Shown here piece by piece: positions 4,107 to 43,251 of a DNA stretch of 64,000 bases (the first letter of the stretch is position 1; each line of letters begins with the position of its first letter). Below the pieces are notes generated by a model. It worked only from the letters and a program-made list of their open reading frames with translations. It was not told where the DNA came from and ran no database searches. The stretch lies in NCBI RefSeq assembly GCF_054482595.1, contig NZ_CM137008.1; one strand, written 5' to 3'. The translations under genes were made by a program, and so were the position numbers.

Positions 4107-4196
4107 CGGAGAGATGCCGGAGCGGCTGAACGGACCGGTCTCGAAAACCGGAGTGGGGGCAACTCCACCGGGGGTTCAAATCCCCCTCTCTCCGCC
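4107..4196 (+). tRNA. serU: tRNA-Ser (CGA), 90 nt with long variable arm; 3' part is the phage attachment core
   Basis: GGAGAGATGCCGGAGCGGCTGAACGGACCGGTCTCGAAAACCGG...GGTTCAAATCCCCCTCTCTCCGCCA; anticodon loop CTCGAAA. Confidence 0.9.
4135..4196. repeat. attL core: 62-bp direct repeat (2 mismatches) shared with attR
   Basis: cggtctcgaaaaccggagt[g/a]ggggcaactc[c/t]accgggggttcaaatccccctctctccgcca found at 4135-4196 and 43190-43251. Confidence 0.85.
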
Positions 4197-4243
4197 AAAA
4201 TTCAATCACTTACACATCATTAAGTCAGTGACAAAAATCACAC

Positions 4244-4278
4244 TTGGAATTACTTGGAATATTTTCTTGGAATATTTT
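4244..4278. promoter_or_regulatory. Three direct copies of TTGGAAT(ATTTTC): candidate integrase arm-type binding sites (P' arm)
   Basis: Copies at 4244, 4254, 4267; same motif at 43079-43089 and inverted at 43141-43150 near attR; overlaps int 3' end. Confidence 0.4.
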
Positions 4279-5275
4279 CAGGTAACGGGACATCAAGTGT
4301 TGGTGAAACTTTAACCTTCCTGTCATAGATTAGCACTTGCCCTTCGGTTTTGTGACCAGAGAAAAGTTGCTTATCCCGGCTGCTTCCTTCATAGTCTGAA
4401 ATTCCTTTCGCCTTCAGATCATGAAAGGTGAAGTCGGTTAAAATACCTGAAATTTTTCCAGCACGATTTCTTGCATCTACCCACATTTCGTTAAAGCCTT
4501 TGTACATATATCGGTTGCCGTATTGATTGCTGATCACATAGGCAGATTTTGGTAACTGTTTTGCTTTTTCGATCGCTGCCTGTAATCGTGGACTCCATGC
4601 TTTTATCTGTTTTTTTCCGGTTTTCCCTTGCTGGATGAATATCCCGTCGTTTCCAATCTGTTCCCATTTCAGCGATAACACATCGGAAACCCTCGCTGCA
4701 CACAGATAGGCAATTTCCATTGCGATAAAAACAGGAAGAGGTGCAACGCTTAATACTGCCTGGTATTCTTTGTCGGTTACATATCGTTCGCGGTTTTTGG
4801 CCTTGAATTTACTTACACCTGCACATGGGTTAGCCTTCACGTACCCTCGCTCATACCCCCAACTGTAAACACGGGACATACTGCTTTTTTCATGGTTGGC
4901 TTGCGTTTTACTCTGCTCCCCTCTTTTGTCCATGTATCGACGGATGTGTTCTGGTTTTATGGAATCCGCTGGTACCTTACCGAATACGGCAAGCAACTTT
5001 TTTTGATGTTGCAGATAATCTTTTTGTGTTCTTGGACTAAGGTCACTGTAATAGGCGCTGGCGAGGAATTTTTCCCACAAGCGACCGAATGTCATTGCAC
5101 GATCGCGATTATTTACAGTTTCCTCATACTTTTTCCATAAAGCAGCTAAACCATCCTTGATGGCGGTTAGTGTGACAGATTCTCTGGATGTTGGTTTCCA
5201 TACATAACTATATTTATTTGGGTATACATTTGGAGGTAATTTTTCGTGTTCAGGATTTTTCCTTCGTCTTCCCAT
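4250..5275 (-). CDS. int: Tyrosine recombinase / phage integrase
   Basis: 341-aa ORF adjacent to attL; C-terminal catalytic region with R...HxLR...Y-type residues (FTFHDLKAKG...LFSGHKTEGQVLIYDRK). Confidence 0.85.
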   Translation of the reverse strand: MGRRRKNPEHEKLPPNVYPNKYSYVWKPTSRESVTLTAIKDGLAALWKKYEETVNNRDRAMTFGRLWEKFLASAYYSDLSPRTQKDYLQHQKKLLAVFGKVPADSIKPEHIRRYMDKRGEQSKTQANHEKSSMSRVYSWGYERGYVKANPCAGVSKFKAKNRERYVTDKEYQAVLSVAPLPVFIAMEIAYLCAARVSDVLSLKWEQIGNDGIFIQQGKTGKKQIKAWSPRLQAAIEKAKQLPKSAYVISNQYGNRYMYKGFNEMWVDARNRAGKISGILTDFTFHDLKAKGISDYEGSSRDKQLFSGHKTEGQVLIYDRKVKVSPTLDVPLPENIPRKYSK

Positions 5276-8263: not shown

Positions 8264-8448
8264 TGTGCACATCCTTTTGGCATCATACGTAAACGGGCCA
8301 GCATTGAAACAATGCATACTTTATTTAATAACTCCCGTTCGTGTTTTCTTTTGTTAATGGCATCTTCAGTAAATACAGGATTACTGATAGTGACACCAAT
8401 TTCAAAACAACCTTCAGACGTATTAACGTTTGGTAATAACGTTTTCAT
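8260..8448 (-). CDS. dicB: Cell division inhibitor DicB
   Basis: 62 aa MKTLLPNVNTSEGCFEIGVTISNPVFTEDAINKRKHERELLNKVCIVSMLARLRMMPKGCAQ, matching my recollection of Qin DicB. Confidence 0.75.
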   Translation of the reverse strand: MKTLLPNVNTSEGCFEIGVTISNPVFTEDAINKRKHERELLNKVCIVSMLARLRMMPKGCAQ

Positions 8449-9851: not shown

Positions 9852-9889
9852 ATACCCATAGGTATTTAAAAAGTAAATACCCATGGGTA
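9852..9889. promoter_or_regulatory. Candidate OL operator pair (palindromic TACCCAyrGGTA sites) and leftward early promoter region
   Basis: atacccataggtat (9852-9865) and tacccatgggta (9878-9889); related to acctgtgggtat sites between repressor and cro. Confidence 0.45.
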
Positions 9890-18018: not shown

Positions 18019-18094
18019 GGCCCTTTAGCTCAGTGGTGAGAGCGAGCGACTCATAATCGCCAGGTCGCTGGTTCAAATCCAGCAAGGGCCACCA
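18019..18094 (+). tRNA. tRNA with CAU anticodon (Ile2/Met-like)
   Basis: GGCCCTTTAGCTCAGTGGTGAGAGCGAGCGACTCATAATCGCCAGGTCGCTGGTTCAAATCCAGCAAGGGCCACCA. Confidence 0.8.
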
Positions 18095-18095
18095 A

Positions 18096-18172
18096 CCGCC
18101 ACTAGCTCATCAGGAAAGAGCGTCAACCCTTTAAGTTGAGTGTGCGAGGTTCGAGTCCCCGGTGGCGGTCCA
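18096..18172 (+). tRNA. tRNA, anticodon read as UUU (Lys) but loop atypical; identity provisional
   Basis: Acceptor CCGCCAC/GTGGCGG, D and T arms, encoded CCA; anticodon loop CCTTTAA with C at position 33. Confidence 0.55.
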
Positions 18173-18174
18173 GT

Positions 18175-18250
<76 letters not shown>

Positions 18251-18253
18251 TAT

Positions 18254-18328
<75 letters not shown>

Positions 18329-20294: not shown

Positions 20295-20645
20295 ATGCCA
20301 TCACGAATCCCACGCGCCTGCCGTAAGCGTGGATGTGCAGGTACAACCACAGACAGTTCTGGTTACTGCGATAAACATCGTGGCGAAGGATGGGTACAGC
20401 ATCAACGCGGACTGAGCCGCCACCAGCGTGGCTATGGCTCGAAATGGGATGCCATACGTGCGCGCATACTGAAGCGTGATAATCATCTGTGTCAGAACTG
20501 CCTGCGCAATGGGAGAGCCGTTGAAGCCAGAACTGTGGACCACATCATTCCGAAAGCTCATGGTGGCACGGATGCAGACAGTAACCTGCAGAGTCTGTGC
20601 TGGCCCTGTCATAAAGCAAAAACAGCGCGCGAACGCATCAATTGA
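20295..20645 (+). CDS. HNH endonuclease (packaging-associated)
   Basis: 116 aa with paired Cys motifs and HNH-like H..N..H (DHIIPKAHGGTDADSNLQSLCWPCH); immediately upstream of terminase genes. Confidence 0.75.
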   Translation: MPSRIPRACRKRGCAGTTTDSSGYCDKHRGEGWVQHQRGLSRHQRGYGSKWDAIRARILKRDNHLCQNCLRNGRAVEARTVDHIIPKAHGGTDADSNLQSLCWPCHKAKTARERIN

Positions 20646-20793
20646 TAACAGTTCCCATCTGTAGGGGAGGGGCGGGTCAAATCTCTGCAACCCTGGCTGC
20701 TCAGTACCGCCGCCTGACCCTTCCTCACATCGCCGCAGGTTCGAAAACTTTTTTTTGGAAATGTGAACAAACGATTGATAGGTAAGACCGATT

Positions 20794-21276
20794 ATGTCAG
20801 GACCTCCGAAAACCCCGCCACGCCTGCATTTGATTCGAGGCAACCCCTCAAAGCGCCCCGTTAAAGACCACAAAAAAACCGCTAAAAAGGATGAAAAAGG
20901 TCTTCCTAAAATTCCGCAGCATTTAGGGGCTCAGGGGAAGTACTGGTTCAGGCGAATGGCGGAAGAGCTGAATGCGGAAGGGATCATTTCTCAGCTTGAT
21001 GCGCGTGCGCTCGAGTTGCTGGTGGAAGCCTACACCGAATATCGGCATCACTGCGAAACACTCGATGTTGAGGGGTATACCTACCGCACGGAAACGCAGA
21101 GCGGTGATGTACTGATTAAGGCGCACCCCGCGGCGGCAATGAAAGCGGATGCCTGGAAGCGGATCCGGGCAATGCTTGCAGAGTTTGGTATGTCACCGGC
21201 AAGCCGGGCTAAAGTAAATATCGCCGGACCGGATGATGTTGATCCGCTGGCGGAGCTTTTAAAAGCGAGAGACTGA
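20794..21276 (+). CDS. Terminase small subunit
   Basis: 160-aa ORF directly upstream of and overlapping terminase large subunit. Confidence 0.65.
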   Translation: MSGPPKTPPRLHLIRGNPSKRPVKDHKKTAKKDEKGLPKIPQHLGAQGKYWFRRMAEELNAEGIISQLDARALELLVEAYTEYRHHCETLDVEGYTYRTETQSGDVLIKAHPAAAMKADAWKRIRAMLAEFGMSPASRAKVNIAGPDDVDPLAELLKARD

Positions 21277-23033
21277 TGGCAAAAGTGGCTGACGGGATCC
21301 GCTACGCCGAACGTGTTGTTGCAGGAGAAATTGTTGCTGGCGAATTTGTCCGCCTGGCCTGCCAGCGTTTTCTTGATGATCTGAAGTACGGCGAAGAGCG
21401 GGGGATTTATTTCAGTGAACCCCGTGCGCAGCACATCCTGAATTTCTACAAATTTGTGCCTCATGTAAAAGGGGCGCTGGCAGGCCAGCCCATTGAACTG
21501 ATGGACTGGCATGTATTTATCCTCATTAATATTTTTGGTTTTGTCATTCCGCTGGTGAATGAAGAGACCGGGGAAGTTGTCATGCGCAGCGATGGCAGCG
21601 GACGTCCGGTGATGGTGCGCCGGTTCCGGACGGCGTACAACGAAGTCGCCCGTAAAAACGCAAAATCAACTCTGTCATCGGGTATCGGCCTGTATATGAC
21701 GGGGGCAGATGGTGAAGGCGGTGCTGAGGTGTATTCAGCCGCCACCACGCGTGACCAGGCCAGAATTGTGTTTGAAGACGCCAAAAATATGGTCAGAAAA
21801 GCCCGGTCGACACTCGGGCGGTTGTTTGATTTCAACAAGCTGGCGATTTACCAGGAGCAGAGCGCATCAAAATTTGAACCGCTTTCCTCGGATGCAAACA
21901 ACCTGGATGGTCTGAACATCCACTGCGCCATTATTGATGAGCTGCATGCACATAAAACCCGCGACGTGTGGGACGTTCTGGAAACGGCAACCGGTGCTCG
22001 CCTGCAGTCCCTGTTATTTGGTATCACCACGGCAGGGTTTAACAAGGAAGGGATTTGTTACGAGCAGCGTGATTACGCCATCAAGGTATTGCGTGGCTAT
22101 AACAGCGATGTGGAGGGCGCTGTAAAAGACGACTCCTACTTTGCGATTATTTACACCCTCGATGAGGGAGATGATCCGTTTGATGAAACGGTCTGGCAGA
22201 AAGCGAATCCCGGCCTGGGCATCTGTAAACGCTGGGATGATCTGCGTCGCCTGGCGAAAAAAGCGAAAGAACAGGTCTCTGCGCGGGTGAATTTTTTTAC
22301 CAAACACATGAATGTGTGGGTAACAGCAGAGTCTGCCTGGATGGACATGATTAAGTGGGAGAAGTGCGAATACATTGCCCCACGACATGAGCTGAAAACG
22401 TATCCCATGTGGGTCGGCGTTGACCTTGCTCATAAGATTGATATCTGTGCGGCGGCAAAACTCTGGCGAACGGATAACGGGCATGTTCATGCCGATTTTA
22501 AATTCTGGCTTCCGGAAGGACGGCTGGAACGATGCTCGCGGCAGCAGGCAGAACTTTACCGGAAGTGGGCGGAGATGGATAAGCTGATTCTGACGGATGG
22601 TGATGTTATCGATCATGCTCAGATAAAAAGTGACTTACTGGAATGGATTGGTGGTGAAAACCTCAGGGAACTGGGATTTGACCCGTGGAGCGCGATGCAG
22701 TTCAGCCTGGCACTGGCTGAAGAAGGGATACCGCTGGTGGAGGTTCCGCAGACGGTTCGTAATCTGTCAGAGGCCATGAAGGAAACGGAATCACTGGTCT
22801 ATGCCGGGCGTTTCCATCACAGCAATCATCCGGTCATGAACTGGATGATGTCTAACGTTACGGTAAAACCGGACAAAAACGACAATATCTTCCCGAATAA
22901 ATCCACGCTGGAAGCCAAAATCGACGGCCCTGTTGCGATGTTTACAGCAATGAGCCGGATGCTGGTCAATGGTGGTGAACCGGAGCTGGATCTGTCTGAA
23001 CATCTGGTCAGCGTGGGCATCCGTTCGCTTTAA
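21276..23033 (+). CDS. Terminase large subunit
   Basis: 585 aa; position and size; ATPase then nuclease-like segments. Confidence 0.8.
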
Positions 23034-23044
23034 CCGAGGTCATT

Positions 23045-23227
23045 ATGTTTCTGATAATTCTCGCGCCACTGGTGGGCGTGCTGGGTGCGCTTTTGCTGGC
23101 GTATGGTGCCTGGCTGATTTATCCCCCGGCGGGTTTTGTTGTTGCCGGGGTGCTGTGCCTGTTCTGGTCGTGGCTGGTGGCGCGATATCTCGACCGAACA
23201 CAGCCGTCTGTCGGCGGAGGTAAATAG
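23045..23227 (+). CDS. Small hydrophobic protein between terminase and portal
   Basis: 60 aa, two predicted TM segments. Confidence 0.4.
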
Positions 23228-24468
23228 TGTTCTTTTCGGGATTATTTCAACGAAAAAGTGACGCGCCGGTGACCACGCCAGCAGAGCTGGCGGATGCCAT
23301 CGGGTTGTCTTACGACACCTATACCGGAAAGCAGATCAGCAGTCAGCGGGCCATGCGACTGACGGCGGTTTTTTCCTGCGTCAGAGTGCTGGCAGAGTCG
23401 GTCGGGATGTTGCCCTGCAATCTGTATCACCTGAACGGCAGCCTGAAACAGAGAGCCACCGGCGAACGTCTGCATAAGCTGATCTCCACGCATCCCAATG
23501 GCTATATGACGCCGCAGGAGTTCTGGGAGCTGGTGGTCACCTGTCTGTGCCTGAGGGGAAACTTTTACGCCTACAAAGTGAAAGCATTTGGCGAAGTGGC
23601 TGAACTGCTGCCCGTCGATCCCGGCTGTGTGGTACCGAAGCTTAACAGTCGCTGGGAGCCGGTCTATCAGGTCACATTCCCGGACGGTTCCACGGATGTA
23701 CTGAGCCAGGAGGATATCTGGCATGTGCGCACGCTGACGCTGGACGGTCTGGTGGGACTGAATCCCATCGCCTATGCCCGCGAGGCAATATCGCTGGCAG
23801 CAGCGACCGAAGAGCACGGGGCCAGACTGTTCAGCAATGGTGCGGTGACGTCCGGTGTGTTGCGTACAGAACAGACGCTGTCGGATCAGGCTTATGAGCG
23901 CCTGAAGAAAGATTTTGAGGAGCGTCACACCGGGCTTGGCAATGCTCACCGCCCGATGATCCTTGAGATGGGGCTGGACTGGAAGTCGATGGCGCTGAAC
24001 GCCGAGGACAGCCAGTTCCTGGAAACCCGCAAGTTTCAGCTTGAAGAAATCTGTCGTCTGTTCCGGGTGCCGTTGCACATGGTGCAGAACACCGATCGCG
24101 CCACCTTCAACAATATCGAAGAGCTGGGGCTGGGATTTATCAACTATTCACTGGTGCCGTATCTGACCCGCATCGAACAGCGGATCAACACCGGACTGGT
24201 ACGAAAAAGTAAGCAGGGCGTTTATTACGCCAAATTTAACGCCGGGGCGTTACTGCGCGGGGATATGAAGTCCCGTTTTGAAGCCTACGCCACCGGGATC
24301 AACTGGGGAATTTACTCTCCCAATGACTGCCGCGACCTGGAAGATATGAATCCGCGTCCCGGTGGTGATGTCTATCTCACACCGATGAACATGACCACGA
24401 AACCCTCCGATGGCAGTAAAGCCGGTAAGCAGAAGGATAACGCCAATGCAGACGAAACAACGTCTTGA
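23227..24468 (+). CDS. Portal protein
   Basis: 413 aa following terminase; GTG start. Confidence 0.75.
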   Translation: MFFSGLFQRKSDAPVTTPAELADAIGLSYDTYTGKQISSQRAMRLTAVFSCVRVLAESVGMLPCNLYHLNGSLKQRATGERLHKLISTHPNGYMTPQEFWELVVTCLCLRGNFYAYKVKAFGEVAELLPVDPGCVVPKLNSRWEPVYQVTFPDGSTDVLSQEDIWHVRTLTLDGLVGLNPIAYAREAISLAAATEEHGARLFSNGAVTSGVLRTEQTLSDQAYERLKKDFEERHTGLGNAHRPMILEMGLDWKSMALNAEDSQFLETRKFQLEEICRLFRVPLHMVQNTDRATFNNIEELGLGFINYSLVPYLTRIEQRINTGLVRKSKQGVYYAKFNAGALLRGDMKSRFEAYATGINWGIYSPNDCRDLEDMNPRPGGDVYLTPMNMTTKPSDGSKAGKQKDNANADETTS

Positions 24469-43189: not shown

Positions 43190-43251
43190 CGGTCTCGAAA
43201 ACCGGAGTAGGGGCAACTCTACCGGGGGTTCAAATCCCCCTCTCTCCGCCA
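43190..43251. repeat. attR core: partial serU 3' end (62 bp)
   Basis: Direct repeat of 4135-4196 with 2 paired differences. Confidence 0.85.

Follow-up and report, generated by a model that had tools for sequence, protein, structure and literature searches.

Bacteriophage HK97 (39,732 bp) carries its packaging and head genes in the order HNH endonuclease, cos, small terminase (TerS), large terminase (TerL), portal, protease and capsid (Juhala 2000; Kala 2014; PMC9410871; PMC11331095). Its HNH protein, gp74, stimulates cos cleavage in vitro (PMC9410871, PMC11331095), and its genome ends are 10-nt 3' overhangs (PMC9410871). For Shigella phage SfI, run-off sequencing of virion DNA revealed a 10-nt gap, TGCCCGCCCC (PMC3636060), and in the Stx2e phage phiP27 (NC_003356) the order is HNH gene (L34), annotated cos-site and terminase genes (L35/L36). 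In lambda, cosQ-cosN-cosB likewise has three parts: an element on the left, a staggered cut and, beside the TerS gene, a region bound by TerS. For the locus considered here lambda offers an analogy only, as it has a 12-nt 5' overhang, the Nu1/gpA terminase, no HNH gene and no sequence homology.

The stretch of DNA analysed (the window; 64,000 nt from assembly GCF_054482595.1, contig NZ_CM137008.1) holds an apparently complete lambdoid prophage, about 39 kb long and with head genes of the HK97 type; the locus described here is its packaging-initiation module. Both copies of the prophage's 31-bp att repeat are intact (4167–4197 and 43221–43251) and delimit a unit of 39,054 bp, similar in size to the HK97 genome. 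An HNH endonuclease gene of 116 aa (20295–20645, + strand; PF01844 E 1.9e-16; phrog_144 E 1.2e-41) is followed, on the same strand and after a non-coding gap of 148 bp (20646–20793), by the gene for a P27-family small terminase of 160 aa (20794–21276, +; PF05119 E 2.3e-25; TIGR01558; phrog_83 E 2.5e-55). The large terminase gene (21276–23033, +; 585 aa), with HK97-type ATPase and nuclease domains (PF03354, PF20441), overlaps the TerS stop codon with its start (TGATG). In profile searches, an HK97-family portal gene (23227–24468, +; PF04860 E 5e-108; TIGR01537 260 bits), an S78 prohead protease (PF04586) and an HK97-type capsid (PF05065) lie downstream. All packaging and head open reading frames in the window are full length, and tail and integrase-sized ones are also there. 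The original prediction, that an HNH gene lies directly upstream of the two terminase genes, was thus borne out by the reading frames and domain matches, and the boundaries it gave for the HNH gene and the gap were exact. Modules of this type are already known, and the genes are already annotated in E. coli genomes.

The HNH gene appears intact. Its product covers the whole PF01844 profile (1–47 of 47), and its translation retains both CxxC pairs (CQNC and CWPC, the latter within CWPCH) and the DH...N...H residues. It is 91% identical in amino acids to phiP27 gp34 and 37% identical to HK97 gp74 over 70 aa (E 6e-12), from which it differs by an extra N-terminal stretch of ~39 aa with a zinc-ribbon-like Cx4C...Cx2H motif and by the lack of gp74's C-terminal extension. 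Its closest solved structure is PDB 5h0m (full-length match, E 2.4e-15), labelled in the match only as ‘HNH endonuclease’, which we take to be the enzyme of Geobacillus virus E2. That enzyme reportedly acts jointly with its own large terminase; its host is a thermophilic Gram-positive bacterium, unlike the source of the window's HNH. Among 89 related viral loci with a cosB-like block of the window's type (described below) and enough upstream sequence, 79 have an HNH gene within 1.5 kb upstream. Of the ten without one, eight resemble PICI-type satellites, one (L067) is without any cos module, and the tenth is L033. Such recurrence of the arrangement is not chance, and a role of the HNH protein in cutting the cos of this prophage would follow from its likeness to HK97.

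The large terminase belongs to the same families as HK97 gp2 (PF03354 E 1.9e-27; PF20441 E 4e-52), and is 29% identical to gp2 (E 7e-41) and 38% identical to the TerL of phiP27. Kala et al. 2014 are said to have associated HNH partners with large terminases of the PF03354 type, the family found here. The small terminase scores above both curated cut-offs of its family (TIGR01558, 110.4 bits against 45.6; PF05119, 89.3 bits against 24.7). BLASTP gave no alignment between it and HK97 gp1, and gp1 has no PF05119 match. To our knowledge, the HNH-dependent class is not defined by a gp1-homologous small terminase, and yet the absence of one limits the label ‘HK97-type’ for this module. That description, as originally proposed, therefore holds for the HNH, large terminase, portal, protease and capsid, but not for the P27-family small terminase.

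The gap was expected from the outset to hold the cohesive end, and this is supported by its alignment with cos regions whose ends are known. In an alignment of 11 phages (A2; HK97, phiP27, SfV, SfI, Pm34, mEp235, Fraca, and Klebsiella and Morganella phages among them), the left 60 columns of the gap align without gaps with the cos regions of HK97, phiP27, SfI/SfV and Proteus phage Pm34. All known or annotated ends in this alignment (HK97, phiP27, SfI and Pm34) coincide with window positions 20708–20717, which hold the predicted cohesive-end core, the 10-nt sequence CGCCGCCTGA. Column for column, this core matches the 10 nt with which the HK97 record closes (CGCCGCCAAA), the phiP27 GenBank feature ‘cos-site’ at 21806–21815 (CGCCCGCCCC) and the 10-nt gap of SfI, and the record of Pm34 stops at the predicted left nick. 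Position 1 of the HK97 record is +1 of the cleavage site as mapped; T16, C:G 21 and A:T 24–29 of the published map match record positions (PMC11331095). The records of mEp235 and PSTRCR_117lys were left out of the end evidence because their layouts are arbitrary or incomplete at cos. By homology, the top strand is expected to be nicked at 20717/20718 and the bottom strand at 20707/20708, leaving a 10-nt 3' overhang whose last three bases would be TGA (AAA in HK97). The CGCCGCC of the core is at least 90% conserved. A scan of the gap (20646–20793) for a sigma-70-like promoter, an intrinsic terminator or an inverted repeat found none. In phage CharmingMan the core is inverted, an orientation of which a simple packaging model gives no account.

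To the left of the core lies a G-rich block, GGGGAGGGGCGGGTCAAATC (20664–20683), identified as a conserved left cos element from alignment A2 and from its conservation across related loci. It stands 24 bp to the left of the predicted nick, gap-free, in all 11 phages of the alignment, HK97 included, and few parts of the gap are as well conserved across 105 unique related loci. HK97 shares this layout, with a G-rich block containing TCAAATC, a 22-nt spacer, ACCGCCGCC and the cut 3 nt on. In PhiR49_2 the block remains beside cos, though ~730 bp part it from the HNH gene. By analogy with lambda, it may have a cosQ-like role. For the 24-nt spacer between block and nick, a hairpin or cruciform was rejected after folding with DNA parameters, as 56 unique spacers gave a mean z of −0.58 against shuffles (window, +0.42). 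A stem-loop like a tRNA T-arm around TCAAATC was likewise rejected, as variants retain the G-run alongside uncompensated changes on the 3' side.

To the right of the cut, a cosB-like block, CACATCGCCGCAGGTTCGAAAACTTTTTTTT (20726–20756; +9 to +39 from the cut), is nearly invariant in mEp235, Pm34, Fraca, Klebsiella phage 1 LV-2017 and Morganella IME1369_02 (small terminases 57–74% identical in amino acids), and is absent from HK97, phiP27 and SfV, which have different small terminases. As the block is conserved only with one small-terminase type, it is the candidate site that this small terminase probably binds. Its position matches that of the small-terminase site of HK97 (+15 to +29, with an A-tract), and in both phages the 40 bp just right of the cut include an A/T tract. 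The distance from cut to TerS start differs, at 76 bp in the window and 49 bp in HK97, and since the small terminase falls outside the HK97 gp1 family, the assignment of the site is one of analogy.

The named relatives share different parts of this site. In phiP27, the DNA from the HNH gene through the G-rich block to the core is 83% identical to the window, while the sequence right of the core is unrelated and the TerS, of the same Pfam family, is only 19% identical. Shigella phages SfV, SfI and SfIV and Salmonella ST64B are homologous in the 3' end of the HNH gene and the G-rich block (76–79% DNA identity) and have the SfI core; their cosB region and terminase subtype are unlike those of the window. 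The Hendrixvirinae mEp235, Pm34, Fraca, Providencia PSTRCR_117lys and Morganella IME1369_02 have small terminases 60–74% identical to the window's and share the G-rich block, a core of the form CGCCSCCTNR and the cosB block. They differ in their tail and early modules, some have a small extra open reading frame between HNH and cos, and their T-run is followed by a GGGG-N-CCCC dyad. This dyad occurs in most relatives and is missing in the window, which counts against the model. A mosaic joint is seen at the cos core. PICI-like satellites that have neither an HNH gene nor a P27-type TerS nor a TerL carry copies of the G-rich block, the core and the cosB block; copying of these three elements by satellites is predicted for a packaging signal.

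The ends of contigs from related phages bear directly on the position of the cut. Four metagenomic viral sequences end at the predicted left (bottom-strand) nick, 22–25 nt past the G-rich block and with an HNH gene just upstream, and two of the four end in ...GGAC. Three of these (L178, L184 and L186) span their contigs entirely; the fourth (L183) is a locus shorter than its contig, so its end is not shown to be that of the contig. The same holds for L068, also shorter than its contig, which starts at the predicted +1 (right nick) and whose TerL and TerS are 86.6% and 72.5% identical to the window's. By a rough estimate, about 0.05 contig ends would be expected by chance in a 4-nt window, against the four observed. 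Ends set by record or storage aside, those of the relatives pile up within 150 nt at the two nicks only. The 10-mer is missing from both kinds of end, as it would be after loss of 3' overhangs and as in the 10-nt gap of SfI, and the pattern is the one expected of 3' overhangs. In a metagenome scan for ends of the exact subtype (GTAC/CGCCGCCTGA), none of 64 contigs with the window-type cosB block ended at cos, which was internal in all of them, as in a prophage.

Taken together, HNH-assisted cos packaging of an HK97-like prophage, with the cut at 20708–20717, is the best explanation of this locus, and we hold it with considerable confidence. It is carried by what the genes encode, by the gap's homology to cos sites with mapped ends, by the pattern of conservation and by where contigs of relatives end; for the prophage itself, the place of the cut is predicted from homology. 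After induction, late transcription would run through the lysis genes, the HNH gene, the gap and the terminase genes. The P27-family small terminase would then bind the conserved block right of the cut (~20726–20756), and the large terminase, helped by the HNH protein, would introduce two staggered nicks 10 bp apart, on the bottom strand at 20707/20708 and on the top strand at 20717/20718. Each product would be one genome unit long and carry 10-nt 3' cohesive ends (CGCCGCCTGA). Packaging would proceed rightwards, with the terminase-gene end entering first, until the next cos in the concatemer is cut in turn. The site would include the G-rich block 24 bp to the left of the cut, which would probably serve termination, as cosQ does in lambda. 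We infer from the comparison which protein reads which sub-site, and that the HNH protein is required. In HK97 itself, we know of no assignment of either strand's nick to one of the nucleases.

The sharp mosaic joint at the cos core raises the question of whether the HNH gene is instead a selfish, homing-type endonuclease at a recombination hot spot, with the terminase cutting cos without it. DNA similarity to phiP27 ends at about 20714, and across this joint the near identity of the two HNH proteins (91%) gives way to far more distant terminases (TerS 19%, TerL 38%). Nuclease genes have reportedly been found at boundaries of genetic exchange between phages, and in some relatives a small open reading frame or the 730-bp insert separates HNH from cos. 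A mobile gene of this kind is nevertheless hard to reconcile with a position and orientation that are constant in 79 of the 89 loci and in phages as distant as HK97. The HNH gene interrupts no gene, and the sporadic presence and absence of a homing element is not seen. Its homologue gp74 stimulates HK97 cos cleavage, and the large terminase is of the PF03354 type with which HNH partners are said to be associated. We therefore regard a homing role as quite unlikely.

Were the prophage defective or cryptic, the cos module could be an uncut relic, or be used only when another phage supplies the functions. In the closest copy from a complete genome (E. coli SMS-3-5) the integrase is frameshifted, and no virion-derived sequence of the exact cos subtype was found among the phage records and metagenome contigs checked. 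The near-identical ‘phage’ records ON4706xx trace only to a preprint whose subject is phages located in clinical E. coli isolates, and for that reason they were not counted as virion evidence. Against decay stand the full-length packaging and head genes, the tail and integrase-sized reading frames, the two intact att repeats around a phage-sized unit and the conservation of core and cosB block over many independent copies, and we consider a cryptic prophage unlikely. Nothing specific favours headful (pac) packaging, or a cohesive end outside the gap, such as one inside the coding sequence for HNH or the small terminase. The large terminase belongs to the families of the cos phage HK97, the mapped ends of four homologous phages fall within the aligned 10-mer, and within 150 nt the relatives' contig ends stack at the two nicks alone, those set by record or storage aside, all of which makes such packaging highly improbable.

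HNH-assisted packaging from this cos leaves the current understanding of phage packaging unchanged, and its value is mostly practical. Of 5,426 complete E. coli genomes, 930 contain at least 80% of a 1.2-kb query from the locus, and the genome ends, and hence the correct linear map, would be fixed for a prophage type found in about one-sixth of them. The 100 bp at ~20660–20760 should suffice for packaging of a plasmid by this phage. The three parts (G-rich block, core and a right block specific to the small-terminase type) offer a comparative frame for HK97 and for the role of its sequence left of the cut. The G-rich block lies exactly 24 bp from the nick across unrelated small terminases (the HK97 gp1 type and two divergent P27 types) and differing cores. 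We tentatively suggest, while leaning against it, that the block is a separate cos sub-site read by TerL or HNH and not by TerS, that the core is a preferred recombination joint, and that satellites exploit such sites in tandem. If so, a joint at the core would let HNH-plus-left-cos modules swap between terminase types, and E. coli PICI-like satellites with an HK97/P27-type cos and a lambda-like cosN in tandem would exploit two unrelated helper packaging systems.

A lambdoid prophage at a tRNA-Ser gene hosts the locus. Its limits are set by a direct repeat of 31 bp (4167-4197 and 43221-43251) that takes in the 3' end of tRNA-Ser(cga); this gives a prophage unit of 39,054 bp, and an integrase-sized ORF lies at 4250-5275. 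The phage carries a cluster of four tRNA genes (Met/Ile-type CAT, Lys, Thr and Gly) at 18019-18328, between a Q-like antiterminator and the lysis genes. The packaging module follows the holin, lysozyme and Rz genes, and its ORFs bear out the original prediction of an HNH gene directly upstream of the terminase genes. The HNH endonuclease (20295-20645, 116 aa) matches the full PF01844 profile (E 1.9e-16) and phrog_144 (E 1.2e-41), and is homologous over its full length to a solved HNH protein (PDB 5h0m, E 2.4e-15). It retains both CxxC pairs and the catalytic DH...N...H residues, also has an N-terminal Cx4C...Cx2H motif, and shares 37% identity with HK97 gp74 across the catalytic half. A non-coding gap of 148 bp (20646-20793), in which scans for promoter-like sites, terminator-like sites and inverted repeats found nothing, separates it from the P27-family small terminase gene (20794-21276; PF05119; TIGR01558, 110 bits, cut-off 45.6), whose stop is overlapped by the start of the large terminase gene (21276-23033; with a PF03354 ATPase and a PF20441 nuclease domain). 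Next comes a predicted membrane protein of 60 aa (phrog_502; 23045-23227), whose position is conserved in phiP27 and SfI, and then the genes for an HK97-family portal, an S78 protease and an HK97-type capsid. Those traits of HNH-assisted cos modules that sequence can reveal are present: an adjacent intact HNH gene, a PF03354/PF20441 large terminase and an HK97-type portal, protease and capsid. The small terminase is P27-type where that of HK97 is gp1-type, and the label 'HK97-type' is accurate for every other gene. A homing endonuclease and headful packaging were also considered as readings of the locus, and both failed when tested.

The cohesive end had been expected somewhere within the spacer of about 150 bp; homology to known cos regions agrees and narrows it to 10 bp. 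The phiP27 GenBank record carries a 'cos-site' feature at 21806-21815, CGCCCGCCCC, and run-off sequencing of SfI virion DNA gave a 10-nt gap, TGCCCGCCCC, with SfV differing by one base (PMC3636060). For HK97, the first base of the record is +1 of the mapped cleavage site: T16, a C:G pair at 21 and A:T pairs at 24-29 (PMC11331095) match the record positions. Because HK97 ends carry 10-nt 3' overhangs (PMC9410871), the final 10 nt of the record, CGCCGCCAAA, represent the overhang. The record of Proteus phage Pm34 terminates in ...GGAC, with the circular continuation CGCCCCCTTA. When the gap region was aligned across 11 phages, the left 60 columns contained no internal gaps in any of them, and the phiP27, SfI, HK97 and Pm34 10-mers all fell on 20708-20717 of the window, CGCCGCCTGA. 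Nicks are therefore predicted at 20707/20708 (bottom strand) and 20717/20718 (top strand). On these sequence comparisons, the gap is homologous to cos regions with known ends, which supports a putative cos feature in the element.

Contig ends in relatives come from two scans of a viral contig collection, with a right-hand block downstream of the core (ATCGCCGCAGGTTNGAAAAC, 120 loci) and with a 14-mer of a G-rich block upstream of it (another 120 stretches). The right-hand-block scan returned one relative (L068; TerL 86.6% and TerS 72.5% identical to the window) whose first bases, CCTCTTTTCAC..., start exactly at the predicted +1. The G-block scan returned four metagenomic sequences (L178, L183, L184 and L186), each with an HNH gene directly upstream, that terminate 22-25 nt past the G-block, where the bottom-strand nick is predicted; two of these sequences terminate in ...GGAC. 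L178, L184 and L186 are whole contigs, and L183 and L068 are loci shorter than their contigs, which means that storage cuts may account for the ends of these two. Apart from record- or storage-defined ends, no further contig end lay within 150 nt of the predicted nicks, and we estimate that chance would place about 0.05 ends in the 4-nt span at the bottom-strand nick. The 10-mer is missing from both kinds of end: right ends stop before it and the left end begins after it, the pattern expected if library preparation removes 3' overhangs. A 5' overhang is expected to be filled in, and hence visible at both ends. A metagenome scan for the exact cos subtype of the window gave 64 contigs, and in every one of them cos is internal, as it would be in a prophage.

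Four spots are highly conserved among 105 unique loci: the G-block (20664-20683), the core, two C's after the cut, and the right-hand block (20726-20756). The core reads G(G/T)AC then CGCCGCCT, the spacer from G-block to core is variable, and the right-hand block is conserved as CACATCGCCGCAGGTT(A/C)GAAAACTTTTTTT, partly by construction, as 20 of its bases are the search pattern. The right-hand block may be a cosB-like element bound by the small terminase, since it is restricted to phages with the small-terminase type of the window and, at +9 to +39, overlaps the stretch where HK97 has its small-terminase site (+15 to +29, A-tract included). Phages with unrelated small terminases (HK97 gp1 and two P27-family types mutually only 19% identical) share the G-block at a constant 24 bp from the nick, and on that ground we would assign this block, as a cosQ-like element, to a component that all these phages share, which would be the large terminase, HNH protein or portal. 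In most relatives a T-run is followed by a short dyad (alignment columns 97-112; window 20757-20775) whose sequence changes while its symmetry is retained (GGGGTCCCC, GGGGAACCCC, CCGGGATACCCGG); the dyad is missing both from the window and from phi467, the closest relative of the window. One food-metagenome contig (L297) has two cosB-block copies in opposite orientation 1.4 kb apart, at 8421-8447 (+) and 9863-9889 (-).

Comparison with phiP27 reveals a mosaic joint exactly at the core, between 20295-20717 and 20718-23033. The HNH protein of phiP27, gp34, is 91% identical to that of the window, and DNA identity is 83% as far as about 20714, where similarity ends; the terminases are only 19% (TerS) and 38% (TerL) identical. 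In Escherichia phage CharmingMan (L019, ~470-560) a 17-nt core segment, TTAGGCGGCGGTCCTTT, is inverted with flanks unchanged and overall spacing preserved, and another locus (L116) has CharmingMan-type flanks with the core in normal orientation; the inversion is either genuine or a product of assembly. Three further public records are rearranged at cos, probably through misassembly at physical DNA ends: in Evi (L022) the HNH 3' end and cos are replaced by an inverted copy of the 5' part of TerS, Fraca (L013/L014) starts with a 131-nt TerL fragment fused within a few bases of the predicted +1 (the exact joint being ambiguous), and PSTRCR_117lys (L011/L012) lacks ~39 nt, core included. The HNH gene is misannotated or missed in several records, being labelled 'holin' in Pm34 (L015, 256-606) and unannotated in PSTRCR_117lys (L012, 169-513) and PhiR49_2 (L021, 396-740), with tblastn identities of 73-92%; a 'holin' of matching size and position in Morganella IME1369_02 (L018, 41-394) is a candidate. 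PhiR49_2 also has a reverse-strand gene of ~730 bp between HNH and G-block.

Eight small PICI-like elements of 9.8-13.7 kb, four of ~13 kb (L041, L066, L085, L094) and four of ~10-11 kb (L054, L076, L096, L112), contain the G-block, core and right-hand block, and have no HNH, P27-type TerS or TerL gene. L041 encodes an integrase together with DUF927 primase, ProQ and PerC, and in L054 there are genes for an AAA_25 helicase and for capsid proteins resembling lambda E/D. Two lambda-like cosN sequences lie ~200-260 nt downstream of the cos module in L041 and L094, followed in L041 by a Nu1-like gene; this region is found in 30 of 5,426 E. coli genomes. The literature examined on EcCICFT073 describes two lambda-type cos sites and does not mention an HK97/P27-type cos.

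Homology with HK97 suggests that the small terminase would mark the cos site and that the large terminase, stimulated by the HNH protein, would make the staggered cut. Packaging would then proceed rightwards to the next cos, with the terminase-gene end entering first. The original prediction was right, and the finding is real. At least 80% of a 1.2-kb query was found in 930 of 5,426 complete E. coli genomes, and the E. coli SMS-3-5 genome already labels this locus 'HNH endonuclease / phage terminase small subunit P27 family / terminase large subunit'. The module is of a well-understood kind in a very common prophage, and some novelty lies only in the G-block and satellite observations.
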